DNA of 64,000 bases, taken from Vermamoeba vermiformis. Its lineage: Eukaryota. This document shows, in pieces, positions 3,301 through 63,706 of the stretch; the first letter of the stretch is position 1; each line of letters starts with the position of its first letter. Under the pieces are notes generated by a model, which searched no databases, was not told the origin of the DNA, and was given only the letters and a program-made list of their open reading frames with translations. The translations under genes and the position numbers were made by a program. The DNA lies in contig JBEWZL010000260.1 of assembly GCA_045837725.1 (NCBI GenBank), positions 62,001 to 126,000 of the forward strand, written 5' to 3'.

Positions 3301-4957
3301 ACACTGTTCGTCAATCAACTATGGGCATTGTACAGTTCGCTTATGGCGATGACGGTATTGACCCACACAAGGTCGAGGCCGAAGATAGTCCCGTTGACTA
3401 TGATCGTGTATTGTTGAACTCCCTTGGTGAACAAGGTGCGCCCATGGAACCCTACGAGATTATGGAATACGTTGACAAGACATTGGCCGAGAATCCGATC
3501 TTCATCAACATGCCTGATTTCCATCGTGCCAACTTGCGCATCTTCTTTTTGAACCACGAGAACAAGCGCGACAGCAAAGACAAGATCATAGAAGGAGCTC
3601 TCGACAAGGTCATCAAACTTCGCAAGTCTCTTGGCTTGCCTGACGGCTTAGTAAAAGACGATCACAAAGGTAAGTGCTCGTAACGCAACCCTTTCGGCCC
3701 CTAACTTTTTTATTTGTAGATACAAAACTCGAGCAAGAGAAGAAGCAATTAGTGTACATTGTGTATCCCATCAACCTCGCTGTACTCGCCAAGTTCTTCC
3801 AAATCGTCGAACAAAAATTCCGTCGCATTCTCGTCGAGCCTGGTGATGCTGTTGGTGCCGTAGCCGCACAGTCTATTGGTGAGCCTTGCACACAAATGAC
3901 GTTGAAGACTTTCCACTTTGCTGGTGTCGCGTCCATGAACATTACACTTGGTGTCCCGCGTATTCGAGAAATCATCAACGCCTCCAAGAACATTAGCACA
4001 CCCATTATTACGGCACAATTGACTCGGCCAAACGACAAGGAGTTCGCCAAACAAGTACGAGGTCGCATTGAGAAGACCACACTTGGAAACATTGCCGCGT
4101 ACATCGCTGAAGTCTACGACAAGAACACACCGCACTTAGAGATCAAGATTGACTTCGACGCTATTCATGACTTGAAGTTGAAGATCTCAATGAACACCAT
4201 CAAGAAGTCCATTACCGAACACAAGAAGATCAAGTTGAAGGACAAGGACATTGAAGTCGGTGGTATTGCGCGCGATAAAATCATCATCGTGCCACCCGAG
4301 AACGCGAAGCAGAACGTGTTCTTCACAATGCAACACATCAAGAGCATTCTTCCTAAAGTCATCGTTGCCGGTCTGCACGGAGTTAATCGTTGCGTCATTG
4401 GTGAGAAGAAGGAGAAAGACGAACACGGCAACCACTTGCTGGAGCTGTTAGTCGAAGGCAATGACATGCTTGGTGTGATGGGCACGCCTGGTGTAGATGG
4501 CAGTCAAACTAAGTCTAATCACACTCTCGATGTGCAACGCGACCTTGGCATTGAAGCTGCACGACGAGCTATCGTGGAAGAAATTCGTTACACGATGAAC
4601 CAGCACGGTGTTGCAGTCGATGCACGTCACTTGTTCCTGTTGGCTGATGTTATGACCTTCAAGGGCAATGTGTTGGGTATCACTCGTCACGGTATCTCGC
4701 GCATGAAGGACAGTGTGCTGATGTTAGCATCATTCGAAAAGACAACCGATTATCTGTTCGACGCTGCAGCTCACTCGATGGACGAGCAAGTGAGGGGTGT
4801 GTCGGAGTGCATTATCTTAGGCACACCTATTCCCTTGGGTACTGGTCTCTTCAAGGTGCTCAAGAAGTCGTCCAAGCCCAAATTAACCAAGAAGCCTCTG
4901 TTGTTGCAATCAAATGACTTCAGGTTATCGCTAAGCGACTTTATCACTCCTGCTTAA
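396..4957 (+). CDS. RPC1: DNA-directed RNA polymerase III largest subunit (multi-exon)
   Basis: Zn motif [40 protein letters not shown], catalytic [42 protein letters not shown], Pol III-type [24 protein letters not shown], no heptad CTD. ORF pieces are joined by short GT-AG introns. Confidence 0.95.
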
Positions 4958-14500: not shown

Positions 14501-16594
14501 TAAGATTAATATCCATATAAATAACCTATTTTACACTAATATAGTATCTTTACGTACCACTAGCTGATGAAGTAAATAAGGGTCGTCCATTGTCATCGCA
14601 CGGCACGTAGTCATCTACAATAATGGTCTCCCAGCCCTTAGCATTGGCATTATAGAACCTGATGGTGTACACGCCTGCCTCAACACTCTCAGCACCGAAC
14701 AATGAAAATAAACTTTCAAGTTGCGATGTGAGCGCAGATAAAATGGACAAAAATCGAACGTCCGTGTGAGGTCCTACAATACAAAGAACAGTTAGTTTAA
14801 CTCTCTAAGCATTCGAAACCATCCATCTCATACCTGCCACGGGCTGTGCGGGGTCATAACCTTCAATGAAAAGCGAAGGTGAGGTATAAAGATCCTTCAC
14901 GCGTCTCCAAGTAGCAGCAATGGAGTTGTTTTCTGGTCACAAAAATTAAGACCGTAGCTCATTAAGAAGAGTCACGCGTACCTGACACAGACGAATTGAT
15001 GTGCTTAAACTGATCATCGACAAAATGCTTGCCACTCTGCTTCAAGTTCTCAGCAAATGCAGGAGGTTGATCCGTTTCATCATTCTGCAACATTTGTTAG
15101 TTGACACGCCATAAGATAGTATTGTGCTATACTTACGTAAAGACTTCGTCTGTTTCTGCGCTTGATTGTGGCATAAACACTATCACGTGCGAGTTTTGCG
15201 GGAGGTGACACAGTGTACGAGAGCTTCGGAAGCTGATTATTGACGGGTGCTGTGACAGGTGCTGTCAATTGTGGGCGTTGAGTAGTAGAAGCACGGCCAG
15301 GTGAACTACGTGGTTGTGCTACCAAATTAGCCGAAGGTTGTTTCGCGTTGGACGGTGTCAATGGTGCGGACTGTTTAGGTTGAGTTGGTGACTGTACAGT
15401 AACAGGTTGAGGTGCCTCACTCGGCTGAACTTGTTGAGGTTGAGTGGTTGGCTGAACTGCCGGCTGTGCTGTTGGTTGAGGTGTCGGTTGCGTGACTTGT
15501 GGTGCGGTTTGTGGTGCTTCAGTGGTAGTTTGAGGTTCCTGTCGGCGACCAATAAAACCACCGTTCTGTGGAGGTCTCGAACCTAAACATAAGTTAGATC
15601 ACGTACATCTTGCCATTGCAAAATAGAAAATGCAACTATGCAAATACTAAAAACTGACCCATTTTTCCGGCGAAGCTAGCGCTCGGAGACCGCGTCAACT
15701 CCGGTCGTTCAGTGTTCTGTGCGCTCGGGGATGTAACGTTCTGCTTGGGTCTGGAAACAGATGCGGACCAACCGCGAGACTGAGGAGCGGTCTCAGCGTG
15801 AGGTTTGGGTGACTCGGGCGCGGGTATAGTATTATCGACTTGAGCACGAGGTGATATAGGCTGCTCCACTTGTGCCTCTATCTTAATAGGAGGAACAATT
15901 GGCGTTGCATTAAGCGTTGTTGTAGGACTTAATGGCGGGCTTTGTGGCTTCGTGACGGGTTCGGGTTGACGTGGTGTTTGAACAGCTTGTGGTTGTGGCT
16001 CTGTCCTTGGTGACAAAGGCGCCTGTTGCACAACGGCAGCAGTATTATTGTTCTGATCCGCTGGTGCTGTGCTATTGTTTGCCTCCTCTTGCGGCGGAAT
16101 ACTCGGGTTGCTGTCGATCAACCTCGCACCTCCCAAGACGTTGATGTTCGGGCGCTGATTAATTTTTGTGGCAACTTCTGACAGTTTCTCCTCGAGCCAG
16201 TATATCTTTTCAACCAAGAAGGCGAAGGTCTTTTGACGAAACAGATTCAGATCCGTTCCTTCTGGTGGTGGTGCTCCAAGAGATGTGTATATCGAAGCAA
16301 TTGATTTATCAATCTCCTGCAGTGGCTCTTTCACGGATTCATAGGTAATTTGTAAGATCTGGAAATTAGAATTGGTCAATCTGTCAAATGTCCAACCTCC
16401 CCAATTACAAACGAAACTAAAATTCCAAATTATCATAATAATAATTGTTCGAATTTTTGGCATAAAATGTCACGAAAGAAATAAATAGCTGGCGTGCAGT
16501 TCTAATTAATAATTAAAATTAGGTTATTCCAATTAGCCGCATTACAAGCCCAAGTTACCTTCTCGAATTTAAGCTTATTCTCATCCGAGGCCAT
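11553..16594 (-). CDS. Calpain-like protein (CysPc + two calpain-III/C2L domains, P/Q/T-rich linkers), probably catalytically inactive
   Basis: GVYTIRFY..GWETIIVDDYVP, WPMILEKAYAK, two C2L copies (GQWAGESAGG..NPQY, GNYSIIPMT, IVPCTWDAG). The catalytic Cys motif reads QPVAGPHTDVRFLS. Confidence 0.85.
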
Positions 16595-24003: not shown

Positions 24004-27000
24004 TTAAGTGGGGCGCAATATGATCTCTTCTTCGACCATCATTGCAAGTGATTTGAGCGCTAGTACGAGCACGACAAGCACGGCCAATCCAATTGTCATG
24101 CCTGTCGCCACTCTATTTGACTTGGTTGCAGTCTGCGAAATAATTGGCTGTGCATCAGTTGTGTCGGGGTTATATACATCTGTAGTATTGGCGATGAGTT
24201 GTTGGGTCGTATTTACAGTCGCCAATGTGTCCTTCAAGTTGGCTATGGTTCGCTCGAGACTCTCAATTTGCTCGTCACGCGATTTTATCTTCTTCAAGTC
24301 CTGCTCTTGACGGGCATTTGCAGCTTGCTTTTCTTTGGCGATAATTTGTTCTAATTTCTCGATAATAGTATCCTTTTCATCGAGAAGTTCTTTTGCAGCT
24401 TTCATCGCGTTATCATTCTCGTGCAATTCTCGTTCTAATCGTGAATTTTCAACTTTCAAAAGTTGTCGCGATTCATCGATCAATTTTCTGTCTTTGTCAA
24501 TCTGCGCCAATCTTTCTTCCAACAGTTTAATATGATCGCTGTAGTCGCGCTTGTACGAGCTGATCTTGTCTTCGTGTTCTTTAGATTTTGCTGTCATTTC
24601 GTTCTTCAACGAGGCCAATTCATTAGTCAGCTGTTTAATCACGATTTCTGATTTTTCTAACGCGTCGGTGCTGTTCTTAAGTTTCTTTTCTTTGTTGGGC
24701 GGTGAATTTTGTTTCGGCGTGCCTGAACCTTCGGTCTCCAAGTGCTCAATTCTCCTCTTCAAGCTGTCAATGAGCTTTTGACTGCTTCGTGATTCTTTGT
24801 TGCGCTCTGATTGCTCGTCTTCCAATTGCTTCCGTACTTCATCGAGTTCTTGTTGGCAGCGTTTGAGTTCGTTGTGAAGGTACATCTCAATCGCTGGATC
24901 TGACTCGTCTTCCCTGGACTCAAACGATTCATCATCGCTCTTTGGTTCGTCTTCTGTGGCATTTCTATCGTTGATTTGGTTGACACTCGTGCCTGTTTCA
25001 ATTGCCCGAGTAATTTGATCGAGTTCATCGAAGACGTCCATTGGTTGGTGTTTTTCATCAGAGCTAGATTGAGAAGTACCTGATGGCTCTCTGTTATTCT
25101 TTTTGTCTTCTTGCAAGCTCTTCTCTTTACGTCGGAAGATGTTCTTGATCTCTGATATTTCGCGTTGGAGTGCGATAGTGAGTTCAGATTGCGGGAGATT
25201 TTGAACGATCTTCGTCTCGAACTGTCTTGGTGAAGTAGTAGCCTCAGCGGATTTGCTCTTGTTGCTCAGGTCAGTCAGCTCAGTCCTGAGTTGCGTCACT
25301 AGGGCAATTTGTTCTTTCAATAACTCATCTCTTGGCAGCTGAGCTTTGAGCTCTTCGAGTTGTCGTTGAAGTTCTTCAACCTTTTGTGATTCTTGCGTGG
25401 CCTTGCTAGACTTCTCCTTATTGACCATTTCGTTGTTATCTCGATTGAGAGCCTCCTGCAATTGTGCATTCACAGTTTCCAATTGTTGACTCAACTCCTC
25501 GTTCTTGTCGGTTACAACTCGGAGCTGCTCTTTTGCCTGAGCAGCTTCTTGTAGAGATCGATTTAGCTTCGCACGTAGCTCGTCAACGCCTTCGATATTA
25601 GTTTGAGGACTATTGCTTGATTGGTCACTTGGTTGCGAATTTAGTTTCTCAAGCAACTCTTTGTTTTCTTCTTTCAAGCGGTCAAGTTCTTGTCTCAACG
25701 CTAGCGTTTGATCTGCGGGTTGAGTTTCTCCCTCATGGGCAGTTTCAAGCTTACGAGTGGACTGGTCAGTTGTTTCTTTTTCAGCCGTACTCTTTGGTTG
25801 GTTAGCAAGTTCTGATATTCCCGTCACGTTCGTTGAGCCCAATTGCCGACTAGCAGCAAGCTCCTTTTCAAGTCGCTCGTTGTGGGACTTGACGTCGTTC
25901 AGCTCTTGCTTCAGCGCATCAATTTCAGAGAGATCTTGCGGTACTGGCTTCTCTGGGTTGTCTTCTGTCGATTTTGACGCTGGTGAAGCTGATGGTTGTT
26001 GAAGCTTGAGCTGTTCGGTGAGAGACTGGATCTGCTTTTGGAGGCGATCTACTTCGTCTTGAGAGGACGAAACTTGTTCCAAGGTCTCTTCAGTATTGGC
26101 AAGAGGAGAGCTCTGTTGAGCCTTTTCAAGCTGCTCAGTCAAAGATTGAACTTTCTTGTTAAGACGCTCTACTTCGTCGGTAAGATCGGCCACGTCATTC
26201 ATATGAGCTTCAATGACTTTCGTTTGTCGTTCCGATTGTGCGTTCAAAGCAGAAATTTCGTCTTCCTTCTCTTTCAGAACTCTGTCAAATTGTTCCTTCA
26301 ACTGAGTTGGCTCTTCTGGCGTGCTGCTCTTTGAGTCAACGTCGCGCTGAAGAGTTTGGTAGACTTCATTCAATTTGCTGTGCTCTTCTTGTAATGCAGC
26401 TAGCTGCTCTTTAAGGTCTTGTTCGCTGCCTTCGACTTGGTTCAACTTGGATTGCATTTCATCAACCTTGGCTTGCAGAGCAGTAGCGACCGAGTCTTTT
26501 TCTTGCAATTGTTCTTTCGTCGAAGTCAATTCGTTCGTCAACTCTGTAACCTTCGATTGCAGAGTGATGCTCTCGTCTGTTCCTGCAGACTTCACAGTAT
26601 TAACTTGATCTGTCAACTGCTCGATAGTCTTCTGCAGAGCACTCTTATCCTCAGTGCTTGTCTGCAACAGCTCATCGAACTCCTTTTTCTTCGATTCAAA
26701 GTCGTTCTTGAGCTCAGACAGTTCTTGCAGCAAGGTCTCTTTCGCTCGAGAAGTTTCACTGAGTTCTTGCTCTTTACTCTTCAGAGTTGTTTCAAGTTGG
26801 GATACTTGTTGACCGAAGTGATCTGCTTGTTGCCTCGACGACGCTTCTCGTTCTGTGATTTCTTTGAGCTTGGATCGTTCTGTTTCGAGTTCCGCCGTGA
26901 GTTTCGAGATTTCTTCGGACATTGAGCGCTCCTTCTGGTTTTGAGTTGCCTCTGCATCGCTCTTCAGCTTTTCATTATCTACTGTGAGGTTCTTGATATC

Positions 27001-30000
27001 CTCTTGAGCAGACTTCAACTTGACGGTCAGCACTTCGTTTGCGTCTTGCAAAAGGTGAACTTGACCCTTCAAAGTCTCAAGCTCTTCTGTGGCTTGTTGA
27101 CCGTTACTTTGAGCTTGTTTCAGTTCGTTGACGGTAGATTCTAAGTCTCGTTTTAGTTTTTCATAATTAGCAGTGGTTGAATCAAGCGAGGATTTGAGTT
27201 GCTCGTTTGTGGACTTCAACTCTTGGATCGTATTACGAGTGCCTTCCAGCTCACTGTTAAGGTGTGTGACTTGACTCTGATTGGCTTCGAGTTGTTCAGA
27301 CAGCGATTGAACTTGTTGCGTTAAGGTCTCTTGTTTCGCTTGGTACTCGGCGATCTCCTGGGCATGCGTTTCGGTTGCGCTGCTTGCTGAGACTTGCAAG
27401 TCTTTGGTTTGAGCAAGTTCTTCTCGAACAGATTCAAGGTCTTTTTCCAGTGTGGTGATCTTCTCTTGTCCGAGTTGAAGCTCGTGAGAAGTTCGTTCTA
27501 ACTCTCCTTGATGAGTTGCAGTTAGCTCAGCAAGAGATTTCTCGTGGTCTTCTTTCGCCTTCTGCAAGTCTCTTCGAGCATTAGCTATATCCTGCTCGAG
27601 ACTGTCGATAGTCTTTTGCTTGGCATTGAGTTCTTCAACAGAGTTGACAAGCTGTTGTTCCAACTCGCCGGTTCTCTTTGCCGCCTCTTTGGTTGAAGCA
27701 AGCTCGGCCTTGATTTCTTCGAGCTCTTTGCTTAACTTCTCTATATGTGAGTCCTTTTCTGAGCTGTTGGCTTGAGTCATAACGGTCAATTTCTCCACTT
27801 CGCTATTCGCTTGCAAGAGCTCAGCTTCGAAGGCGTTGATTTGTTTCACGTGACTGTGCCAATTGTTCGTCAAGCTCTTTGACCCTCTTGGCTTCGTCAG
27901 AGAGCTTTTCAACTTGCTGTTGTAAAGAGGTAACATCTATCAAAGCAGCAGACTTTTCTTGTTGCAGAGTCTCGATTTGCACGGTCAACTCTTGTCGAGA
28001 TTGTTCAGTTAACTGCTTAGCCTGTGCCAGTTCATTCACAAGGTCTTCGACGCGAGATTGTGTTGCCTTCAAATCTGCTTCGAGTTGTATCTTCTCGTCT
28101 TGCAGTTTAGAAACAGCCTCGCTGCCTTGCATAGCTTCGTCTCGTTGTTTGGTAAGGGTCTCAATCTGAGCAGCAGTATCCTTTTGAAGCTTCAGGTCAA
28201 GCGAGTTACGCGAAGCTTCCAAGTCGTGTTTTAAATTTTCCACTTGCACCGTCATGTCAGCTTCAAGTTGAGATTTTTCATCTCGTCAACTTCTCAACAA
28301 CCGAAGTCTTTTCAGAGCTCAATTCTTCAATCGTTTGATTCAAGGATTCGATTTGGGACTTAAATCGATCTTCGTTGGATTGAAGGGACTCCTTCGTCGA
28401 ATTTAATTCCGTAGTAAGAGCGTCAATTTGTCCGCGTGCCAATTTCAAGTCAGACTCGAGCTGTATCTTGTCATTGGACAGTTTCTCGACGGCAGAGTCA
28501 GTTTCCGATGCTTGCTGCAGACTGTGCTGCAGTTCTTCAAGTTTCTCTTGTAACGAAGCTACTTGTTTGTCTTTCTCTTCCACCGATTGCAAGAGGTCGC
28601 GAGTCTTCTGTTGTTCTTGATCTCTGCTTTCAGTGAGCGAGGAGACTTCAGACTTGACGTTTTCAAGTTCTTTAAGTGATGAAGTGAGTTCCTCAATGGT
28701 CTTGTTCTTGTTTTGCAACTCTTGATCCTTCTCTGCAACTACAGCGGTCAAATTGGTTAACTCCTCGATCTTTTGATTCAATGACTCGATTTGAGACTTG
28801 AATTGATCTTCATTAGATTGAAGAGACTCTTTTGTGGAGTTCAGCTCGACGGTCAAAGCGTCGATTTGATTGCGTGCTGAGGCCAAGTCAGATTCAAGCT
28901 GGGTCTTTTCACTTGTCAGCTTCTCAACCACAGTGTTGGTCTCAGAAGTTTGCTGCAAGTTGTGCTGCATTTCTTCGACTTTCTGATTGAGCGATGCAAC
29001 CTGGGTCGTCAAGCTGGTGTTATCTTGTCGGACTTGCTTCAGCTCCTCTTCAGTGCTGCTCAATAACGCTTGGACAGATTCCAGCTGCTTCTCGACTTCC
29101 TGTTTTTCTTCAAGGACCGCATTTGCTTTGTCCTGAGTAGCTTCATAAATCTTCATCAGCTCATTCTTCTTTGCAAGCTCTTCGCTCAGGTTGGTTTTCT
29201 CCTTCGCCTCGGTTTCATCTTGAGACTTAAGCTCGTTGATACTGTTCTGGAGCTCGTGTTGTTGGGCTTCCATTTCATGAAGCTTCGTGCTGGCTGCGGC
29301 AAGGTCAGTTTGCGTGTTTGATTTCTCCTCTGCTAGCGATTTGGTTTCAGCCTCGTACTTCGCGACTAATGTATTAAGTTCATCATTCTTTACGTCGAGT
29401 TGTTTCTTCACGTTATCGTGATCGCGTTCGAGATTGGCCAAGGACTCTTTTGTCGAAGAGAGTTCGTTAACTACTGAATTCTTTTCTTCTTCAAGCCTGG
29501 CATTGTCGGAAGATTTAGCTGATAAATCTGTTTCGAGAGCAGCGATCTTGTCCGTCAGAGCCGAGTTGTTAGCTCGAACTTCTTCAAGTTCTTTGGTTAG
29601 CGCTATCAACGCGGGTATTTTCGTTGCTCTGATTCTCAGTCAAAGCACGAATTTTCTCGGCAGACTCTTCAGTGACTTGTTGAATCTTCGTCTCTAGCTC
29701 TGAAACAGTTTTTTGACTGACAGAAAGGTCTGATTGCAGCTGTTCAATGGTGGACGCCTTTTCAGCCAGCTCTTCAGTTGCCTTATTCAAGTTCGCTAAG
29801 GTTGAATTATACAAAGTCTCTGAACGCTGTAGTTTGTCTCGTTCAGCCATCAGCACCTTTTGAACGTCCTCGTAGTTTTGTTCAGCAGTCTTCCAAAGGT
29901 TTGTCATTTCCTTTTTGACTTGTTGTTCGCTCTCGTTGAAGTCGCGTAGCTGTTTATTCTCTTTCTCTAAGGCGTCGATTCGCTGTTGGTGTTCGAGTTT

Positions 30001-32448
30001 AAGTTGCTTTTCGCTTTGCTCTTTTTCGTTTTTCAGCGTTTCTAACTGAGCTTTGACGTCGCTCAATTCATTATTAAGTTGTTTGATGGTCTCTTCTTTC
30101 TCAAGGGCTGATTTTTGAGTGTCCGAACTATTGCTCGACAGAGTATTAACTTGAGCAGTCAGCGTTTCAACTTGTTGTTTGGTAGATTGCAGCGCTGCTT
30201 CAAGCTCTGCTTTTTCTTTCAAAGCAGTTTCCAAATCAGACTGTGTCTTTTTCGAACTCGTGCCTTGTGAGCGCATCGAGTCTTCCAAATGAGTGTGCTG
30301 CTGTTTTAACGACAAATATTCGTTTTCAAGTTCTTTGTATTTAGCTTGAAGATCTTCGTTATCTTTTTCTATTTGAGCCCACTTGGCTTTTTCTCTAAAG
30401 TTAACTCGAATGGTTAGTCAACTGATTGTAAGTAATAATAACAATAACAAACCTTTCGAGCTGCAGTTTGACTTGCGTTTGCTTATTCACAATCGTTTGT
30501 AAGCTTTCTGTTTTTGTTAGCAAATCAGTCTTCTCTTCGTTGATCTAAATGCGATATCAGTATCCGTTGTACAGAACAATTGTCGTTCGTTATAACTTAC
30601 TCGTTGAATTTCAGTCAAAAATTTTTGCGACATTCGATTTTCTAACGAATCACGATCGAGAATGGCTTCGTCTTTTTGCTTCAAAAGCTTTTCATATTGT
30701 TCAAGCAAGTCTTGGTACTCTCCTTCGCGAGATTTCAATGTGCTCTCAATTGACTTGTACTTCTCGCTTAAATCTTCTTTTTCTTTTCGAAGATTCAGCA
30801 AATCCTTTTCGTTTTGTTCGGCTTGTAATCTATATTCTTCGGTTTCTTGTCGACTTTCCGAGTCATAGCTCTTCAACTTCTCTTGAAGTGCTTCAAACTC
30901 AGCCTTTTGTTGCTGAAACATATTCTTTGCTGCATCTAATTGACCTTCTAGGATATTTTTAGCGGTCGATAGTGATCGTACTTGATGTTCGAGCTCTTGA
31001 ATTCGTTCGCTATTCAACTCGGTGTTTTGAACGGCTTGTGTTTCAAGTTCGCTTTTCTTAGACAACTGTTGTATTAACAAAAGTATTAGTAACCCGGTGT
31101 TAAACCAACTTATTGTGCGTTCAGTTCAAGTTTGAATATCTTGTCAACTTACCGATGCAAACCTCAACAAGATCGGAGTAAATTCACCGTAGTCGAGTTT
31201 ATCATCAGGAGTCTTGTCATATTCGAGCAAAAGAGCCTCTAAATCTTCGTCTTCAATCCTCATGCCTTGTTCTAGCAAAGTTGCTTTCATGTCATCGTAT
31301 GTAATCAGTCCGTCCTCATCACTGTCGAACATTTTGATCAAAGAGCTGATTTCATCTATCCTCTGTGCCGAAGGGCTCGATGGTTTGTTGCCCAGCGAAT
31401 CACTTCGGTCACGTGATGTGTACAATCGTGCAGTCAATGGAGAGTTTTCTAACACACTCAAATCCATCTTTTGAATCACGTCGATATTGAGTTTTGACTT
31501 AAGAGCGCCGTCCAAGCTCAATCTGTTCCTCAGACGATTGCTTCCACCTTCGGGACTAGAGCTGTAAATAGATTCTCGTTGCTGCTTTAACGCGCTGAAA
31601 TCAGGCTTATAATTGTCTTGATCAGGTGATGTCAATGGTGGCATTCCCGCGTCTCCTTTCATGGGCGTATTGTGTATATTAGAGTTATTCAGTAACCTCG
31701 GCTAAATCACAAATTAGAATTGTACAATACGAACTAGATCCGCTCAAACTTACCGATATAAGCGAGTATAGGGGTGATTCGCTTTGTCTCGGAGGCAAAT
31801 TGAGTGCGAGCGGAGAGCGTGGTGAGAGCGGTGTGGGTGAAGCTGAGACACGTGTCTCTTCTTGCTGGGCATTGATAAATTGGACCATCATATTAACAAA
31901 TTGATCAAACGTAATAAGGCCTAAATGAATAATATTAATCGTAAAGCATAGTTTCTTTACTAAGGCATACCATCATTATCGGGTTGCAGGGCGTTGAAAG
32001 CTTGATCTCGCTGCTCATCGCTTTCAAAAGGGAAAATAGAGCCAAATTGTATATTATTGATTCTTCCTGACTTAGTTTCGTCGATAGCATCGAACTGATC
32101 TCGCAGTTGTTTGACAAGCTCGACTGGGATCTACAGCAGTTATTTAGAATTTTTGTTTAGCTACCAAAGTGTTTTATAATATCATATATATGTGTTAGGA
32201 GCGATTTTGGTTATTTTGATAAACAATACTGATTTTTAAAATATTTGAAAAATTATGTTTTGCCTCATCTTGTCCGTAAGAATTATTTTGTAGCATTTTT
32301 TGTGTCATAGTATACGTGATAATATATTTAAATATTTACTTACAGATGAAGAACCAGCATTGAGATCCCCAAAGGACTTGCTTCGTCCGAGAACTGGTTT
32401 TTCGTTACGCAGCTCCTCGCTTTCGCGAAGGCTATTGGATTCGCTCAT
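24004..32448 (-). CDS. Giant (about 2,600 aa) coiled-coil protein with N-terminal EF-hands, C-terminal transmembrane helix and short tail ending RPT (KASH/interaptin-like)
   Basis: EF-hands FDSDEDGLITYDDM and YDKTPDDKLDYGEF. More than 2,000 aa of heptad E/K/Q/L-rich sequence. TM GMTIGLAVLVVLVLALKSL, then MVEEEIILRPT-stop. Three single-base frame breaks. Confidence 0.8.
28318..28980 (-). repeat. Internal duplicated segment (about 70 aa) within the coiled-coil gene
   Basis: EEMQHNLQQTSETNTVVEKL..NSTKESLQSNEDQFKSQIESLNQKIEEL recurs as EELQHSLQQASETDSAVEKL..NSTKESLQSNEDRFKSQIESLNQTIEEL. Confidence 0.85.
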
Positions 32449-39635: not shown

Positions 39636-41365
39636 ATGCTACTAAGGTCAATATTATATTATATATTAGCTTTACAGCTGTTAATGGTTGCTCAAGCCGG
39701 GATGATTATTGTTTCGTCCTCAGATCCGAGTATTATCGGCGAATATAACGCTGTTCCGAATTTCTTCGAGAACAATCCAACCTCGTGGAATATTTCTGGC
39801 GAATTAATTCCCATTTGGAGAGCAAATGACATGGCAGATCTGACTGGAAAAATCATCTGGGTGCCCAGGCCTCAGCGATGGATTTGGGATGAAATTGCCA
39901 TACCACTACAATCAAAAGGAGCTATTGGTGTTGTTGTCTCCCCTCATCATGTCTTTCGTAAGCTCGGACACTTTTTTACATCCGTTTAGTATACTAATTC
40001 AGCAAATTCAATCTTTATAGCACTTGCCGATAATTAACGATAAAAATAGGTCAGGTTCCTGGCTCTGAAATGTTTTATGATTACAGAGCGACAACTTACA
40101 AATGGCTGTTGCCGCACAACTCGTTATCGGAGTCCGTCTTTTCGACTATTAATGCCTCCTTTGCAAATTTAAATACTACAGCTTACGTTATCGTAGATTC
40201 ATATAGTAAGAACGATATTACGTGCATATAATTTTGCAATAGCTCAGTGGACGTAATAACACAATTGACAGGTATTAATGAATGGAAAGTTGTGAGCGAT
40301 TCCGATTGGCTTATAGCATGGCAGGTCGTCTTAGGATTTATTGGCTTAGCAACGATAATTCTCGGATTTTATCTGCTGATCACGATCTTCAGAGATGCGA
40401 GAAAAATTCACATGACTACTGTACAATTATCTCTCATTTTTATCACCTTCGGAGCGATTTGGAGGACTATATACATCGTAGTTAATCCGTTCATGTATCG
40501 ACGCACGTGGTACACGGATTCGAACGATGTATTTTTGACATCCCACGCAGTTTTTACAATTTCACCGATCTTCCTTATTGCACTGTATCAGTAAGTCTAA
40601 AATTTAATTTTAAGACGATGATATCGACAACATAGTCGAATAAGGAATCAATCTCGAAATAATCTCGGCAAATTTCATTCCCAGTTAATCGTGAATCAAT
40701 CATTTATTAATGTAAATTATCTCGCAGGCACGAGCTCATGAGGAAGAACAATATGACGGCCAATCTATTCTTGAATCGAATGCGCATCCCGTTCTTCGTT
40801 TGTATCGGAGTACTCTTCGCGGCTGAAATTGCCATCAGCGCGATTAGAGCTCAAGGAGCAACTACTGCAGTGACGTACATCAACGTTATCCTATATTTGG
40901 CAGTTGCGTTGGTATTCTCAGTCTTCTTCGTGGTCACGTCCATCCGAATTACTCTCTTCTTGCGTAGAATGCGCAAGTTAAGTACTAAAAAAGCCTCGTT
41001 ACTCAAGGTAAGCCTAATTATATTACAAAAAGTGTATCTAATGAGTTGTTGTTCAGACCACAACGTTGTTAGCATGCTCGACAATTGCCCAAGTTATTTT
41101 CATCGTGTCGCTGGGCATGTTTTTATCGCCGTACTTTACTATGCCATTATACAACAGTATCATATGGTTCTTCCTCATGCTATCACTATATGCTATTAGT
41201 TTGATCCACATAACAACATACTTAGTCAATTTGAAGTCAATTCTCAACTCATCGAAGAGCAGCAAAGTCTCCTCACAGTTATCAAATCCCAGTCACTTGA
41301 ACAACACAAGCAGCAACACCAACAATAATGAATCTTATGACACTAAGAAGGGGGATTCAGTTTGA
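39636..41365 (+). CDS. Signal peptide + PA (protease-associated)-like ectodomain + seven-transmembrane protein
   Basis: Signal peptide MLLRSILYYILALQLLMVAQA. PA-like DLTGKIIWV..LQSKGAIGVVV. Seven hydrophobic segments in later exons. Ser/Asn-rich cytoplasmic tail. Confidence 0.7.
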
Positions 41366-41379
41366 CCAAATCTTGTATA

Positions 41380-43397
41380 ATATTAAATGAGTTTATTTCA
41401 CCTTGGCTTCCAGCATAAGAAATTAATATCTGTGTAAGTAACCTGATGAACACACTGGTATTTTACTATTGTGTGCCAAACCTTTCTTCCAGGAGCTGGG
41501 CAACACCATCTTGGTAGACAATATTAAGAACTTTGAGCCTAGCTGGTGAAGTTGATTCAATATAAGAACGCATTTCTGAGCAGGCAGTGGATGATAATAC
41601 ATGCTGCTCAATTGGTTAGATACAAGAGAAGTGTGTCAAGCATACCCACTGGAAATGCATAACCTTTTGCAAATTGTTTCACTGCCAATACCATAAGTAC
41701 AACAGAGAAGTCTTTCTCCTGAGAAAATGGTTTGATGGAAGTTGGTTTTCAGGAATGATTTTTCTTTCTGCTTTTAGTCTTAACATCTGCATTTCTGTTA
41801 GTTATACTTCATAGGTATTTAACCATACCAAGCTTGCTACATCATTCCCCTCTGGTAGATCAGAGTGCATGAATTGGCCTTGAAGCAATTCTTGCAGCTG
41901 ATGAATTTCATCCAAAAATATTGCCCGAATTCCCACTTTTTGGGCAAACTCCACATGCCTGCTGCAAAATGTATTAAATGTGTCACGTTTGTTGGCCAAA
42001 TGAAGATTCTTTTTGAACACTTTAACCAACAATTGTTGGCCACCATTTGATATGAAGTGCAAATAAGCTTTTTGCTTGTGAGTATCATCTTCAAAGACAC
42101 TGTTCACTAATAAAAAGAAATTAATTTGGAGCTTACTACTACTACTTGCTTATTACCTTGGTTGTAGAACCTCTCTGCAAGATCAAGTGCTGCCAAAGAG
42201 ACTAGCATCATTATTCTTGTGGCATGTTCCAGCAATTTTAATTCTTGATCATAACACCATTTGTTTGGAGGAGTTGTAAGGTGTTTGGCAAGAAGTTCTG
42301 AGATAGCATCATGTGCAGCATCAAATAATTGCTTGTGACCTTCTTCAACATTGTGTAACACTATGCCCCCACAGTTGCGTGCATAGGAATGCATGAAGGG
42401 AGTTTTTCCTGCACCACTCACTGAGAAGTGTCAGCAGCATGCCCAAGGAGCAAAACAACACTTACGTTGCACAATCCAGAACAGTTTGTGCATAAGTTGT
42501 CTCGCCACTGACATTTGTATTGCATCAGTCAAAGCATTAAACAAATTGGGCTGCTGCTGATACAAGTCGTCAAAGTAAAAAGTGTCCCATTTTGAAGTCC
42601 TGGTGGGCTGTGAGCTTGGGCTTGTCCCCAAAGGCAGGGATTTGATTTTCAAGTGGTGAATGTTTTCTTGCCGCCACGTAGAATATTCCTCTAATTGCTG
42701 CAAATAGACCAGGCTTGCTTCAATATCCGCCTTGATCTCATCTTCGGTTGTCACTTGCATGTCAGAAAATTCATAATTAGTTACACCAAGTAATGAGTTT
42801 TTTGTGTAATAAGCCAACCTTGATAATTAATTAAAGTAGCCCTCATCTTATCGCTGCTTATTTTTGGCAGATAGCTTAAAAACGCTTCAGGATCAGCCAC
42901 TAAGAATTTTCCATTCAACTGTGGATTCGTTTGAACTGTTTGGATGGCCTTTTCACTGTAGCCTTTTGTTTGCATCCATTTGGCTAAGTCCGTGTTCGAG
43001 CACTCTTTCACTACAACATCCGCGTAATCAGCAACAGATAGGAAGATCTGATCCAGTTACTTACATGGCTTAGCTTGTACGATATAATTTTCCAGCTTTC
43101 TGTTCGCTACAAAGCCAGTTTAGCAATTATTATTGTTGATGTTGCCTACCTTGGTAAAGAGATTTTGTGGTTAAATAATTTCGCAAATTTGCGCCGTATG
43201 ACCTAACAAAATTAGAACTACGACCAAATTAATTTCGTAGAATACAATTGAATTTGTTGGAGTTTCTTTGCTCCTCGGGCCACATTATTACGATTTTTCT
43301 GGTTAGTAAAAATAAATATTCGCTGACTGGTGATTGCCGAAGCGGATTTGCACTTTGTTCTGTGCTGAACGCATGCTAAAGTTCGTAACAAAAACAT
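41380..43397 (-). pseudogene. Decayed presequence-like leader + SAM-like + P-loop NTPase gene (Crinkler/RHS-like), copy 1
   Basis: Spliced Walker A IVQLSGAGKT and Walker B AIFLDEIH. Collinear homology with the 58.6-61.0 kb gene. 1-bp deletion near 41697, stop at 41466-41468, 3' end lost. CpG-depleted. Confidence 0.75.
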
Positions 43398-43511
43398 GTA
43401 GCATAATTTGCAAGCGTGGTATTGAGGTGCGGACGGGAAGTAAACAGGTTGAAAAGTGAACTGAACTCAGTTTTTCTATTCAGAGTACTAAACAGCAACT
43501 CTTCCTCGTCC

Positions 43512-45748
43512 ATGAATTTTTATATTGGAGTTGACGTTGGTACCACTTCTGCACGAGCAGGATTGTTCAATAAAGAAGGAAGATTGATCTGCTCGACATC
43601 CCACGCTATTGCCGTTTACAAGCCTCAAACAGATTATTATGAGCATTCCTCGAATGATATTTGGCAGGTAAATTGTACTGATAGCTTAAATTCGTTTCAT
43701 TAGTTCAGGTAGCAATTTAAAAAATTAATTTCTAAACAGCGCTCGTTATAAAATAAAAAATAACTTAAAATTATTTCAAAGGCCGTTGTATATTGTATCA
43801 AAAAAATATTAGAGGACTCAAAAGTCGTTCCAGAAACGGTCAAAGGCATTGGATTCGATGCAACTTGCTCCTTGTAGGTATTTATGCACCTCTTTCTCCT
43901 TGTTGCTAATACAATTAATAGAGTAGTGCTTGGCGCTAATGATCAGCCGATCAGCGTCAGCCCAACGAACGATCCCGACCAGAACGTAATTGTGAGTTAA
44001 TGATCACGCAATCTTTTGGGCTAATCATAATAAATTAGGTATGGATGGATCATAGAGCTATCAAACAAGCAGAGTTTATTAATAGCACAAAGCACGAAGG
44101 TACGGGCCTGATCCAGTCGCAAAAACATAGTTACCGACTTAAATTACAGTATTGAAATATATCGGCAATGTAATATCACCCGAAATGGAGACGCCTAAAT
44201 TATTATGGTTGAAGCAACACAAACCTGACGCGTGGACCAACGCCACTAAATTTTTGGATCTTGTTGACTTCCTCACTTACACGGCGACAGGTACGACAAT
44301 AATTAGAATTACTCGTATTTAACAATACTATTAGGTTGTGATACCCGGTCTCTATGTACAGTAGTATGCAAATGGACTTTTCAAGAACATAGACGGCCGA
44401 CAAGTGGAGCTAGATCCGATGACACGTACGGGTGGGACGATTCGTACTTCAAACAAATAGGATTGAACGACTTAGTCGAGGAGAACTATAAAAGAATAGG
44501 CACATCAGTTGGCATGATGGGTCAGGCTATCGGCAACGGACTGACGGCTAAAGCGGCGCAAGAATTTGGTTTGAAAGAAGGCACCGCTGTGTCCGTTGGA
44601 ATTATAGATGCGCATGCGGGAGGCATTGGATTGTTAGGCACTTCAATTAGCGGCGAAAAAGTTGATTTGAAGATGCTCGAGCGACGATTGGCTTTCATTG
44701 CAGGTACGAGATCTACGGTGCAACTTACTACAGATCTCACAATTATTTTTGTTTAGGCACTTCAGCGTGTCATATGGCATGCAGTATTGAACCGAAGTTC
44801 ATTAACGGCATTTGGGGCCCGTATTTGCAAGCGATGATTCCAAACGCATGGCTGACGGAAGGTGGTCAAAGTGCTGTTGGCTCGTTGATTGATCACATTA
44901 TAGACACGTACGTCTGCATTTGTGTAAGGTCTCTTATTAATTAGTGTATAGGCACTCTGAAGGCAAGGCTCTTCGAGACCAAGCTAAGCACGACAATCGT
45001 TCAGTGTTCGATATTTTGAACAGACAACTGGCGCACTTGGCCGAGCAAAAATCAACTTCAGTGCCACTGCTGACGTCACACCTACACGTGTTGCCTTATT
45101 GGCACGGAAATAGAAGCCCGAGGTATAATATTTTATAAGACTATTACTCTAGTTTGGTATTAACGGAGTTCACAGAGCGGATCCAACATTGCAAGGAATG
45201 ATTAGCGGTTTGACCCTAGGCGACACATTAGCCGTTATTTATTTAGCTACATTACAAGCAATTGCATTAGGAACGCGTCATATTATCAGCGAAATGAACA
45301 AGGTACGTGGAATTTTCACGCATAATTCGAGTTAGCTGATCGTAGATCCGTGTTTAGCAAGGATACAATATCGACACGATATTTATGACCGGTGGATTTG
45401 CAAAAAATACATTATTTGTAGAAGAGCTAGCCAGCATTACGAAGTGTCGTGTAATTTTAGCGCAAGAAAGTGATGCGGTATTGCTCGGATCTGCTATCCT
45501 TGGAGCCGTTGCATCAAAAGAATACAATAGTATACTAAGTGCTATGAGCACTATGAACAAAGTCGGAAAGATATTCGAACCGTCAACAGATCCTCAAGTG
45601 CTTTCATTTTACGACGCAAAGTAAGTCAGATCTGCTCTCAAACGATTAATGACGTAAAAAAACTGATTATATTTGTAGATTTCGAGTATTTTTAAAGATG
45701 TACGAACATCAAATGGAGTATCGAGCGTTAATGAATCAATCTCAATAA
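43512..45748 (+). CDS. FGGY-family carbohydrate kinase (ribulokinase-like)
   Basis: [73 protein letters not shown]. Confidence 0.93.
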
Positions 45749-58571: not shown

Positions 58572-61024
58572 ATGCTTTTGGCTCGAAGAGTTTTTCGAAA
58601 TCTTGGAAGATCAGTTGTGGCCAAAATAACCTGCAAAAACAGGTATGTTGCCGTATTATTATTAAAAATGGATTAATTAATTTTGCGTAGATCGCTGTAT
58701 TCTTTGGTTTCGAAAGACAAGAAGGGATTCGTCAGCAGAAAATCGTCTGGTCTGACGCACGCCCAAAAATCTCTCTTTTCTAGCGCTATCTCGAAGGAAT
58801 TTCAGAATAATCTAGCTAATTATGTCATCGGGAACAAGAAGCGTAAGTAGCAAATTCAGTTTTATTTTAAGCTGCAAATCCGAACTGACTTTCCGCCGGC
58901 GCACAGTGCGCGAGTGTACAAACCAAGATTTAGCAAACTGGATGGAACGACAAAATGAGTATTCAAAAGCGGCTATTGACCTTGTCCGCAGCACTCCTGA
59001 GTTGAGTGGACGATTCATGTCTGAGGATTTTGACTCGTTTTTGGGTTTCTTGCCTGTGTTAACTCGAAAGAACGTGCACAGTTACTTTCAGGCTGCAGTT
59101 GAACGTAAGCAAGTACTGCTCGAGAGCACTGTTATTAATTCAAACAGGAATGCTGCTGCCATTTAGTCAAACTCTTCCTGTCATCACAGATGAAGAGATT
59201 TCTGCAAAGATTAAGTCATCTCTGCCATACATCCAGGATATGATAACTAAATCAAGTGATCTGGCATGGCAACAGAAGAATATTTGCAGTTACATTGCCA
59301 ATCCACTGCCTGTACATGTGGAACCTCCAAGTACTGAGATCAGATGGAATACATTCTTTTTTGATGACTTGCTCACACAAGATGAGCCATTCAAAAGGCT
59401 AAAGCTTGCTATTGATGATGCTAAATCGTCAAACTCACAAGATATGAAACTAATCCACATCCTGCAAAGTACATAGACAGTTGTTTGAAAAAGTAGAACT
59501 AACAATGTGACATTAGTGAGTGGGGCTGGCAAAACTCATTTTGCAATTTCATATGCCAGAAAGGGGGATGCTGGTGGTATTGTGTTACGTAATCTCGACA
59601 ATTACCACAAATCTCTATTTGATGCTGCAGAAAGGACCATTAGTCAAGCACGAAAAATGTTGACAAACAGCAATATCACTGAAGAAAAGAAGTTTTTGGA
59701 GCGCTCTAAGAGAACAATGATGCTAATTTCATTAACTGCTCTTGAATTAGCTGAAAAATTTTACAATGAAGGTACTACCCTTCATATTCTTCTAAGACTA
59801 ACATTTGAGTAGCCAAAGAAAAGTTTGCAACTAAGAAGGAACTGCATGATGCCCTTGTGCACTTCCTCTTCACTTGGGGCAGAGATCTAGTTACCAAGAT
59901 GTTTGACCGAAACCTGACATATGTTACAAATGATGCAGAATTTGAGAATTTTGCAAAAAAATATGCAAATTTTGCTAAGGACCAACAGCTTGTGATATTT
60001 CTAGATGAAATTCATTTACTTGCTTTCCAGATGGAGGGAGAATTCATTCATGAAATCCCTACTAAAGATGAAAGTATGCCAGCCCATCAAACACCAACAG
60101 CCAGACAGGTCTCCAATGATGAGTTGGTAAGATAACCTTTACATTAGCACACTTCCATTCTAAGAAAAAAAAGGGTTCTCAAGCACCACAGCCCTTAAAT
60201 ACTATCTTTAAGAGATCAACATCACTACTCTATGTTCTTGTCCTTGCTATGGAGAGCTTCTTGAAGTTGCACAGAATAACAGTGAGTAGAATACAGTACC
60301 TTCCTAGTTGACAATTAGCAGCACATAACAACTTCAACTTCATATTCTGCTATGAGATTTTTTACTGAACAGACAAGTGCACGTGGCAGATTTCGCATTC
60401 ACTACTTCTTGCATTATGAAGATGATAAGGACCGTTTAGATCGGTTCAAAGAACTTTTGTTCAAAACTTTTGGAAAGGAGAGAGTTGAGCCTCTGTTTCT
60501 CGAGTATCTCACAGAATTTCGTGCGCTTGCTTCTCGACCAGTGTATCTGTGGAATCTATTCAATATGGTAAGCAACGTTCATAAATAAGCTGTTCTAAGC
60601 TAGCTATCAAGGTCATAGCAAAAGATGTTGATACAGGATCATTTGAAAGCTTTTTCCACTTGTGGGTGGAAAGGGCAGTCAATGATGCTGAATCAAGAGC
60701 AGAATACTACTTCACCAAAGCAAAGACACAAGCATCAAATAATGCAGTAAGAGTAACAAATTCAACCAATTTTGGTGATACTGACTCTTAAAGGTAAACC
60801 GTGTTATTCGGGAAATTGCCCTTGGAGCAAATACTACTGAGTTGGAAATTGAGGATTGTGAGAAATTAATTGAGCTTGGCTTAATTGATATCAAAAATAT
60901 GTCATTTCCTCCCAAAGAGAAAACTGTGGCATTGGCAACAGACTATTACTTGCGCAGGACCATCCAAGAATCATTCCAAGCCCTCATACAGGCATGTGAT
61001 TCTGATAACAGTACGAAGACTTAA
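58572..61024 (+). CDS. Presequence-like leader + SAM-like + P-loop NTPase + winged-helix-like protein (Crinkler/RHS-like), copy 2, apparently intact
   Basis: Nine exons splice in frame: MLLARRVFRNLGRS..LRECTNQDLANWMERQ..LSGRFM..ILQMSGAGKT..VIFLDEIH..LASRP..CEKLIELGLIDIK. Body strongly CpG-depleted. Exact 3' end uncertain. Confidence 0.75.
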
Positions 61025-61166: not shown

Positions 61167-63706
61167 TTAGTAGTCAGATGTATTAACTGAACCTTCAGGG
61201 TCCAACAAAGGAGTACCCTCCATAGCATTTTGTTTCTTAGTGTCCAAGAAGAACACGCAAATGCAGGCTACGAACACGTCAGAATAAATCTTGGCGTATG
61301 GATCTAATTCATTCACTTTGACTTACCGGCAATCGAAGGCACAGCACCCCATGAAATACCATAAGCCAAGTTCTGATCGAAAGCGGCGATGAGACCAGCA
61401 GCGATGTAAACTGAAGCTGTTTGCGCAACGACGGAGGCGCTGTTAAGGACACCTAAAACAACGAACAACAATCAGAGCCAGAACTATCATATTAGCGATT
61501 GGCTAATAGCGTACCCATGAAGAGACCAGCGTCTTCAGAAGCGACGAGATCAGACATCAAAGCGAAAGGAATCGAGTTGAACGAGGTGTAGTTGAACGAG
61601 ACCAAAGAGGCCAAAACGATGGCAATCACCAAGCGGTGCTCGGCTGAATAAGATGTCAGTAAAGTTCTTACGTTGTATTTATCACTACAGGTCCTTGTAA
61701 GTTCCCATTTTAATCACGTGGTCAGTCTTAAATGAGAGCCGTGTCTAAGGCCATAGTGGTGTGTTGTACGTACCAGGGAACGAGTCCAAAAAGAACAAGC
61801 TAATGTAGCAACCAGTGGCCACAACTTGAGAGCTCAAGTACGCGACTTTAACACCAACGCCCTTGATAATCAAAGGCAACACGAGCGAGTACAAGAACGA
61901 AGCTGCAGCGAAGCAAGCAGAGGCGTAGAGACCCATCTTGAGACCTTCAGTTTCGTTGTCTTTGTACAAGTTGTTTTGGAAGAAAGTCGTCAAGCTGACC
62001 ATCATAGGGGCATAGGCGGCCCTAAGAACTCAATTAGAACTCTGTCATGTGTTCACTAACATAGCATCATCATCGAATGACACGTGTCAACAAAGGTATT
62101 AGACCCCACTACAGCGGCCCAACAAAGCACCAGTGACACGTGTCAAAAATTCATGTCAGGCGCACGTACCAAGAGAAGAAATACAAGGCAACAATCTTGA
62201 AGATCGGACGGTTCATGCTCTTGAAACCAATAATGATCTTCTTGAACACACCACCAATGCTTTGACGAGGAACTGTTACACGATAGATTAGACTAAATAG
62301 CTAACCTCACGCTATAATAATTGCACGTACCGCCAGCAGGTCTTCTGTATTGTTTCTCGTTCGCTGAGAACATTGTTGGGATCAAACTGAAGATGACGAA
62401 CTCGACACCCAAAACTTCATAACGCCATTAGTACGTCTCACTACTGATAGCTAGTTATACTTACTGAACAAGAAGAAGTACGGATCTTTCACGGTGATGA
62501 ACAACGCACCAATAATATTGGCAATAATGTTGGCCAGACCTAAACGTTCGATTAAGGGCTAGTTCAAATAACACTACTAAATAGGGCCAAAATATCGATA
62601 TCCAAGACGTACCCATGACAGTCGAGACCATGGCGTTACCGAGCTGCAACTTCTCTTCGGGCACAACGTCATTGACGAGCGTACGAGCAGGACCTTGCAT
62701 CACGTTGACCATCAAGTTCATCAGAGCCAAGCCAAGCATCTGTCGTTGAATAATATGAGCTAACACGTAACTAAGATTGCTGCTATTCAATCAATAATTT
62801 CGAAAATCAACCGCTTCAATTTCAAGAGCATTGCAATTTGGAGGTTGGATCCATTGCCGACCCCGCTATTTAATTGGTATGCAATTTTGATACGATCGTT
62901 TGCGCGGTAGTAAGTAATAGCAATAAGGTCAAGCGAACTTACAGCAAGGAGGATGGCCCAAGTGTGATCGTGCGGATCTTCTCCGTTAACATTATCGCCC
63001 AAAATAGCGCCAAATTTGACGCACAGACCAATTAAAGCCATACCAACAGCTATTCAATAAGAAAGCACGATTAATATCGCTAAAATCAATATCATTGCGA
63101 ATTTTAATTACCGCAGAAGATTGTGCCGAACAAAATGAACGGGCGTCTGCGACCTAATCGACCAGTGTAGCTAAAAATAGAAAATCATATTAGCTCCATC
63201 GTAATAACGAAAATAGAAAGAGAAATCAAAACCAATTTTAAAAATAAAAACGGAATTTAATTCGAGTGTCTGAATGCATTCATAGCATAATAACAGTAAT
63301 CAAATGATTCCAAAATATTGGTATATTTTTATCAATAATTACTGTTTGTTAAACACGATCGAAAGAAGATCGGTGAATTTTACCTATCACTAATGACTCC
63401 TACAATTGGCTGAACGATAAAACCTGTACTTCTATAATTAGTGCACTTCTACTTTTCGACTTTCAGACGCCTCTACGAACCGCTGATAGGGCCAGCAGTT
63501 GCCATGACAATGTTCGTCGTGGATTTGGAGAGTTTCAATGTTTTTGTGAACAATGGACCGCCTAATGCGAATTGAATACTATCTAATACAAAAAGTCAGC
63601 AACAGAATATTACGGATCGCTCGATCGGGATCTTACAAACAAACTGCACTCCGGCAAGAGCGAAAGTGACGCAAAACAGCCACAGACTATACAAAAACCC
63701 GTTCAT
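61167..63706 (-). CDS. MFS sugar transporter, SLC45/sucrose-transporter (SUT) family
   Basis: LAGVQFVYSIQFALG, AGPISGFIVQPIVGVISD, GRLGRRRPFI, NVMQGPARTLVNDVVP, NSIPFALMS, AGLFMGVLNSASVVAQ. Confidence 0.92.

Follow-up and report, generated by a model that had tools for sequence, protein, structure and literature searches.

The window analysed here is a stretch of 64,000 nucleotides from Vermamoeba vermiformis (contig JBEWZL010000260.1 of assembly GCA_045837725.1, positions 62,001 to 126,000), and it holds two related genes for putative P-loop nucleoside triphosphatases (NTPases). The gene at 58572-61024 on the + strand (hereafter copy 2) is the subject of this report. Copy 2 is an intact nuclear gene belonging to a small, lineage-restricted family. 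Predicted splicing joins 10 exons (Table 1) into an open reading frame (ORF) that starts at the first ATG downstream of an in-frame stop, ends on a TAA and encodes a product of 676 amino acids. The nine introns are all of the GT..AG type and measure 48, 64, 43, 48, 41, 47, 40, 44, and 47 nt. Exon 2 needs exon 1, because it has no Met of its own and an in-frame stop lies just upstream of it; the junction of these two exons splits an Arg codon (...CKN-R-SLYS). The family and fold searches described below were made exon by exon, on uninterrupted translations.

A tblastn search of the window with spliced copy 2 returned a single other locus, at 43011-41547 on the - strand. The gene model built there from the ATG at 43397 (hereafter copy 1) encodes 491 residues and is identical to copy 2 at 167 of 468 aligned residues (36%). 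Intron position and phase are exactly common to both copies at four alignment columns: 87, 264, 354 (phase 1), and 496 (phase 0), and positions nearly coincide at columns 153/164 and 460/473. The initial annotation had described two paralogues with common intron positions, and the search, the alignment and the four exact columns bear this out. Where the copies have the same residue (Met and Trp excluded), different codons are used at 92 of 159 positions. The likeness has therefore been maintained at the protein level and does not reflect a recent copying of the DNA.

The second paralogue is thus real, but it is not the equal member that the earlier description of "two divergent members" implied. 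After a normal 42-nt intron, exon 8 of copy 1 reads PSNHFLRRKTSLLYL, which matches PLNTIFKRSTSLLYV of copy 2 with a score of 41, equalled by 1 of 2000 shuffles. This exon appears to be frameshifted, because the match runs into a stop while homology moves to another frame, in which it resumes as LMVLAVKQFAK (score 27, equalled by 49 of 2000 shuffles). The frame stays open only if a 110-nt intron is assumed, at the cost of about 25 conserved residues, and copy 1 is without the GRF motif and about 170 residues at the C-terminus. A pair of ORFs encoding one small membrane protein (40711-41365, +), with no Pfam match, ends less than about 100 nt from the 3' end of copy 1, so that there is no room for the absent C-terminal part. 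Copy 1 is probably a pseudogene, an old decaying duplicate of copy 2, unless the frameshift is an assembly error. One exon of copy 1 had been read as ending after "...AITSQR", where there is no GT donor; the model continues to "...KKLQQIQ" and a GTATTC donor at 43245, and the leader is acid-free with either end. The start codon of copy 1 is about 100 nt from an ORF in head-to-head arrangement (43490-43950, +), which we take to resemble an FGGY-type sugar kinase.

Relatives elsewhere are few. When 1,835,955,588 representative proteins were searched with a Walker A exon profile, three matches passed the cut-off (E ≤0.001), two of them credible. Both are exon fragments from short NCBI contigs. 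The first, P0001 (E 1e-40), is a 95-aa ORF fragment near-identical to the Walker A exon of copy 1, from which it differs at 3 of 79 exon residues vs 3 of 16 in the intron read-on (Fisher p 0.058); judged from its sequence, it is the orthologous copy 1 exon, kept open in a close relative. The second, P0003 (109 aa, E 7.9e-4), contains SGVGKT and is alignable to the full length of the exon, with 35% identity. Its similarity stops exactly at the exon end of the copies, beyond which the sequence runs into "GT...", and at least two intron positions appear to be conserved in the distant organism that it comes from. The third match, P0002, was dropped as a relative, its sequence being a low-complexity repeat. 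Word-based homologue searches with exon 5, exon 4 and P0003 found no further relatives, and of the 595 and 555 pattern matches that metagenome scans returned for the exon 5 and exon 4 alignments, respectively, none was confirmed by tblastn. As far as these fragments tell, the family exists beyond the V. vermiformis genome and has an old gene structure, and few of its members are present in public data. The tally is one intact and one probably decayed copy in the window, plus two exon fragments judged credible among 1.84 billion proteins, which falls short of the "dispersed, fast-evolving family" that had been proposed.

The central part of both products has the signature of a P-loop NTPase of the "additional strand, catalytic Glu" (ASCE) division. 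A hydrophobic strand (KLIHIL in copy 2, KLFWIV in copy 1) leads into QMSGAGKT or QLSGAGKT, respectively, a Walker A motif in which the first Gly is replaced by Gln, and about 145 residues further on stands an hhhhDE Walker B motif (VIFLDEIH in copy 2, AIFLDEIH in copy 1) with the catalytic Glu beside the Asp. GK[ST] is intact in copy 1, copy 2 and P0003. The initial annotation had read IVQLSGAGKT and ILQMSGAGKT, without the first Gly, and hhFLDEIH, and these readings hold in both copies; its RP motif was found as SRP in copy 2 but has no counterpart in copy 1. LIELGLI, like SRP, occurs in copy 2 only. The order of elements in copy 2 is a W.TF.FDDL box, the strand, QMSGAGKT, a GGIVL strand, a helical insert of about 110 residues, VIFLDEIH, HITTSTS and ARGRF. 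The copy 1 counterpart of HITTSTS is HVLSSTA, with no GRF after it. On this reading of the motifs HITTSTS could be a sensor-1-like segment, ARGRF an Arg-finger-like motif and SRP a lid motif. A superfamily 2 helicase, suggested by DEIH, "STS" and "QTSARGR", was considered and rejected: the roughly 100 residues between DEIH and the Arg motif would be too few for a second RecA domain.

Family matches below threshold are all to P-loop families, at colinear profile positions and on the expected exons. The Walker A exon matches AAA_33 (E 0.067), the Walker B exon of copy 2 matches AAA (E 0.12) and AAA_14 (E 0.17), and that of copy 1 matches TnsC (E 0.011) and TniB (E 0.16). The ESM features of exon 5 resemble P-loop clusters (0.80-0.83), and those of exon 8, which has no Walker motif, place the named clusters nSTAND3, AAA_35, nSTAND1 and NACHT at ranks 3-6 (0.77-0.83); the tool rates scores below 0.9 as leads only. 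Could the gene then descend from a transposon ATPase of the TniB/TnsC/IstB type, domesticated or left as a relic, and play no part in an organelle? TnsC and TniB are the best weak matches of the copy 1 Walker B exon, but they are non-significant and cover the Walker B core only. The 64-kb window showed neither a transposase nor repeats nor any further copy, and nine spliceosomal introns, at least two of them at positions apparently conserved in P0003, are the mark of an old cellular gene. Such an origin is very unlikely.

Among characterized systems, AAA+ ATPases (classical AAA, TniB/TnsC) offer a parallel in motif order. By eye, copy 2 has in common with them the box before the strand, the P-loop, the second strand, hhFLDEIH, a polar Ser/Thr strand end and ARGRF, for which classical AAA proteins have "IFIDEID" and "RPGRFD" in the Walker B and Arg positions; the weak AAA, AAA_14, TniB and TnsC matches on the Walker B exons point the same way. 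It differs from them in the Gln that stands for the first Walker A Gly, in having no match at a curated cut-off and in the Walker A to Walker B distance, which is about 145 residues here and roughly 55-90 in AAA+ proteins, and the Arg motif is missing in copy 1. STAND NTPases (NACHT, nSTAND1/3, AAA_35, SAMD9/9L) resemble copy 2 in their small N-terminal adaptor-type domain, P-loop, hhhhDE Walker B and following helical region, and exon 8 is led to their nSTAND3, AAA_35, nSTAND1 and NACHT clusters by the ESM features given above as leads. Unlike STAND proteins, the copies have no C-terminal sensor repeats, they show no significant Pfam match to NACHT, NB-ARC or nSTAND, the GxP motif is absent (with SRP instead, in copy 2 only) and the last exon gives no winged-helix matches. 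Nor are the helical insert between Walker A and B or the presequence-like leader of copy 2 features of that class. The combination of a SAM domain with a STAND-like NTPase exists in SAMD9/9L (PMC5445408). The copy 2 protein is far smaller than SAMD9 and is without its AlbA, Sir2 and OB parts. From its motifs, the copy 2 protein can be inferred to resemble most closely a nucleotide switch of the AAA+/STAND type, small in size and fitted with a SAM-type adaptor at the N-terminus.

The putative adaptor is encoded by exon 3, in which both copies carry L[RK]EC.N.DLA.WM ... L.G.F. An AlphaFold2 model of the exon (65 residues, folded together with the copy 1 counterpart; predicted local distance difference test score (pLDDT) 63) has four to five helices. 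When this model was compared with 48,161 representative chains by the VIA aligner, the top four rows were SAM domains (CNK, DGK-delta, L3MBTL3 and PHC3), and SAM or PNT was named in 21 of the 50 rows listed (Z 3.4-4.4). About 60 of the 65 residues were aligned at a root-mean-square deviation of about 2.7 Å. Other rows include TEL fusion modules and helix-hairpin-helix DNA enzymes, and the SAM parts of SARM1 and TIR-1 are also among the structural matches. A SAM-like fold is probable for exon 3 on the strength of this model. SARM1 and TIR-1 have an N-terminal mitochondrial signal and SAM domains, which SARM1 combines with ARM and TIR domains and no P-loop. Copy 2 would resemble them in carrying a mitochondrial-type leader and a SAM-type oligomerisation domain in a protein centred on a nucleotide-handling enzyme domain; with ARM and TIR domains and no P-loop in SARM1, the likeness is one of organisation only.

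The C-terminal region is less easily placed; the initial annotation had taken its LIELGLI for a wHTH-like segment, which found no support in the fold search of the last exon. An AlphaFold2 model of the last exon, folded alone, reached a pLDDT of 71, and the wide VIA search with this model, which may lack the first helix, did not show a winged-helix pattern. The matches are mixed and helical (BAR domain, Mg chelatase, HPt and others, Z ≤4.6) vs the consistent SAM list of exon 3. This result bears on the proposal of the initial annotation that the protein is a Crinkler/RHS-type effector, with a header, a Crinkler NTPase and a helix-turn-helix (HTH) but no longer a nuclease, and directed to the mitochondrion. 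The P-loop NTPase of copy 2 does follow a non-catalytic N-terminal module, and its order of NTPase and possible HTH recalls the "NTPase + HTH + REase" C-termini, REase being a restriction endonuclease, described as prevalent in PMC5289972, where alpha-helical headers other than ubiquitin-like ones also occur in the class. The weak TnsC and TniB matches further recall the proposed transposon origin of Crinkler modules; they are sub-threshold and fall on a generic Walker B stretch. An HTH was not confirmed by the fold search of the last exon, and no LxLFLAK-like or HVLVxxP motif was found in either copy by regular expression. No exon has a Pfam match to Crinkler (Crinkler-N) or to a nuclease, and no PD-(D/E)xK or HNH pattern was found in copy 2. 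The ORF also ends at 61024, and the interval of some 470 nt that separates it from the convergent gene at 61492 could not accommodate a nuclease; a single intact copy differs from the usual expansion of Crinkler families. The leader, moreover, looks organellar and not secretory. By every feature tested (motifs of the ubiquitin-like header, nuclease and expansion; comparison with a Crinkler NTPase profile was not among them), the copy 2 protein is not a Crinkler. The label is unsupported and the proposal very unlikely, whereas the accompanying remark that no nuclease domain is visible agrees with the finding of no nuclease or toxin pattern or Pfam match in copy 2.

The N-terminus of copy 2 has the features of a classic presequence, namely an Arg-rich, acid-free and strongly amphipathic stretch. 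The first 30 residues have a net charge of +7 (5 Arg, 2 Lys), the first acidic residue is at position 33, and the hydrophobic moment reaches 1.03 (11-residue window, 100 degrees). With a home-made scoring heuristic, this composition was found in 10 of the 389 first-ATG ORFs (≥24 aa) of the window, and composition together with amphipathicity in one, which is copy 2 itself. The description of the leader as basic, presequence-like and nearly acid-free is thus upheld on composition and amphipathicity. The copy 1 leader cannot be aligned to that of copy 2 and is acid-free for 73 residues; presequences typically keep their composition without keeping their sequence. On these sequence features the copy 2 product is probably mitochondrial.

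The main rival to mitochondrial targeting is a basic tail of nuclear or nucleolar type. The same SAM-like and NTPase protein would then work outside the mitochondrion, with the leader serving as a nuclear or nucleolar signal, as a disordered region that binds nucleic acid or, in a plastid-bearing host, as a transit peptide. Lys and Ser are abundant in residues 30-75 of copy 2 (the first 75 residues hold 10 Lys and 13 Ser+Thr), which would suit nuclear or nucleolar tails, and the copy 1 leader is without a strong amphipathic helix. The Arg-rich, acid-free and strongly amphipathic character of the first 24 residues, placed at the very N-terminus and repeated in none of the other 388 first-ATG ORFs, argues against this, as does the retention of an acid-free leader of about 70 residues in both paralogues, although the two leaders have no sequence similarity. 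A non-mitochondrial role is a serious alternative, though on balance an unlikely one.

The reading that we favor, with a probability of about 0.5, is that copy 2 encodes an orphan AAA+/STAND-like ATPase with a SAM-like domain and a probable mitochondrial presequence, and that copy 1 is its decaying duplicate. Residues 1 to about 74 would form the basic leader resembling a mitochondrial presequence, residues 75-141 the SAM-like helical domain, and residues from about 200 to about 520 the P-loop NTPase of the ASCE division with its AAA+/STAND-like motif order, followed by a helical tail of some 150 C-terminal residues. After import, the protein would bind and hydrolyse ATP through Lys253 and Asp397/Glu398. 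It could act as a nucleotide-dependent oligomeric switch or remodeller, to which the SAM-like domain may contribute self-association or a contact with protein or nucleic acid.

Several observations weigh against this reading. No exon gave a significant match in Pfam, PADLOC, NCBIfam or PDB sequences, and the P-loop family matches all lie under the curated cut-offs. The assignment to the AAA+/STAND class is drawn from the motifs, among which the spacing of Walker A and Walker B is unusually long, and the ESM scores that agree with it are leads by the tool's own rating. The proposed SAM-like unit has a conserved motif in both copies and SAM-rich structural matches, but the model scores are low (pLDDT 63, Z <5), a Foldseek search of the exon 3 model returned nothing at E ≤0.001 and Pfam SAM models matched no exon of the copies. 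The presequence scoring is not that of TargetP or MitoFates, and the copy 1 leader falls below its thresholds (2 Arg, moment 0.53). The RSLYS cleavage-like site that had been proposed does span the exon 1/2 junction as read, but R-SLYS fits the R-2 and R-3 patterns of mitochondrial cleavage only loosely.

Transcript data add a further point of this kind. In data set X1, introns are removed in neighbouring genes and the data behave like RNA. One contig of this set matches 60348-60546 exactly and is joined to 60786-60841, skipping 60547-60785 with CT..AC ends. Read on the - strand, these are the ends of a canonical GT..AG intron, and the contig runs antisense to exons 8-10 of copy 2; nothing else resembling a transcript covers the gene. 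The contig may belong to the convergent gene that ends near 61492, as an extension at its 3' end, or represent a separate antisense RNA. That neighbour (61492-63053, -) has several exons and encodes a polytopic membrane protein whose hydrophobic segments are transporter-like. Reads from three RNA runs carrying the same species label (mostly 90-95% likeness on neighbouring genes) fell on neither copy (0 reads) and are uninformative on expression. The opposite-strand splice ends of the sole spliced contig, together with the frameshift and truncation of copy 1, could also mean that neither copy works, either as a decaying pair or through an incorrect + strand model and a real antisense transcript. 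We regard this as highly improbable: copy 2 keeps its frame of 676 codons open through nine canonical introns and retains the catalytic Lys, Asp and Glu, the 92 synonymous differences among 159 residues indicate protein-level constraint, and the antisense contig can be accounted for by the extension of its neighbour.

A bolder version of the favored reading is that copy 2 founds an undescribed P-loop family, in which a minimal SAM-like adaptor and an AAA+/STAND-type switch would be carried into mitochondria by a presequence, to serve there as an ATPase for surveillance, cell death or nucleoid remodelling, and known families would contain no relative detectable by sequence. This is doubtful at present and is offered as speculation. 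Targeted literature searches did not find the architecture of presequence, SAM-like domain and P-loop, which is not proof of its absence. If the favored reading is correct, it would add an ATPase family that escapes sequence-based annotation and in which an organellar leader precedes a SAM-type domain and an AAA+/STAND-like engine; this could inform work on mitochondrial quality control, nucleoid biology or conflict systems in the host lineage. With one intact orphan gene and a decaying duplicate in hand, and a function suggested by motifs, the immediate value is modest.

Table 1. Exons of copy 2 and features of copy 1 (positions in the 64-kb window)
Feature	Position	Strand	Content
Copy 2 exon 1	58572..58642	+	Start codon and first 23 2/3 leader codons, basic, acid-free, MLLARRVFRNLGRSVVAKITCKN-; GTATGT donor at 58643
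Copy 2 exon 2	58691..58842	+	Rest of leader, Ser/Lys-rich, RSLYSLVSKDKK...NYVIGNKK; no Pfam match
Copy 2 exon 3	58907..59104	+	Probable SAM-like helical unit, residues 75-141; aligns to copy 1
Copy 2 exon 4	59148..59468	+	Linker, conserved W.TF.FDDL motif, pre-P-loop strand KLIHILQ; aligned to copy 1; no Pfam or PDB sequence match
Copy 2 exon 5	59517..59771	+	Walker A SGAGKT at 59519-59536, Lys253; then helical insert
Copy 2 exon 6	59813..60126	+	Remaining insert; Walker B VIFLDEIH at 59992-60015, Asp397, Glu398
Copy 2 exon 7	60174..60281 (alternative acceptor: start 60165)	+	...NTIFKRSTSLLYVLVLAMESF...; homologous to copy 1 exon 8
Copy 2 exon 8	60322..60567 (alternative acceptor: start 60319)	+	HITTSTS, ARGRF (60379-60393) and SRP motifs
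Copy 2 exon 9	60612..60746	+	C-terminal helical region; no notable Pfam match
Copy 2 exon 10	60794..61024	+	LIELGLI; stop codon 61022-61024
Copy 1	41466..43397	-	Exons 43397-43246, 43202-43150, 43106-43065, 43010-42819, 42753-42466, 42420-42157, 42106-41829, 41718-41650, 41603-41466
Copy 1 ancestral exon 8 frame	41679..41786	-	Matches copy 2 to ...TSLLY (Tyr codon 41697-41699); stop at 41679-41681

The window as a whole is eukaryotic nuclear DNA of about 40% GC. Its introns are short, with GTAAGT or GTATGT donors and CTAAC-like branch sites, and its housekeeping genes include those for the RNA polymerase largest subunit, eIF5A, a molybdopterin oxidoreductase, a flavin amine oxidase and an EF-hand protein. 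The gene for the RNA polymerase largest subunit, at 553-4957 (+), is split by short introns and carries Rpb1 domains 2-4 (E down to 4.6e-60); it is usable for placing the organism. At 11851-16469 (-), several long ORFs encode low-complexity proteins rich in Gln, Pro and Thr. A very long gene for a coiled-coil protein occupies 24004-31701 (-), with successive ORFs of 1310, 453, 277, 202, and 185 aa and a hydrophobic tail, and gives positions 24-30 kb a strong AT skew (about -0.3 to -0.36).

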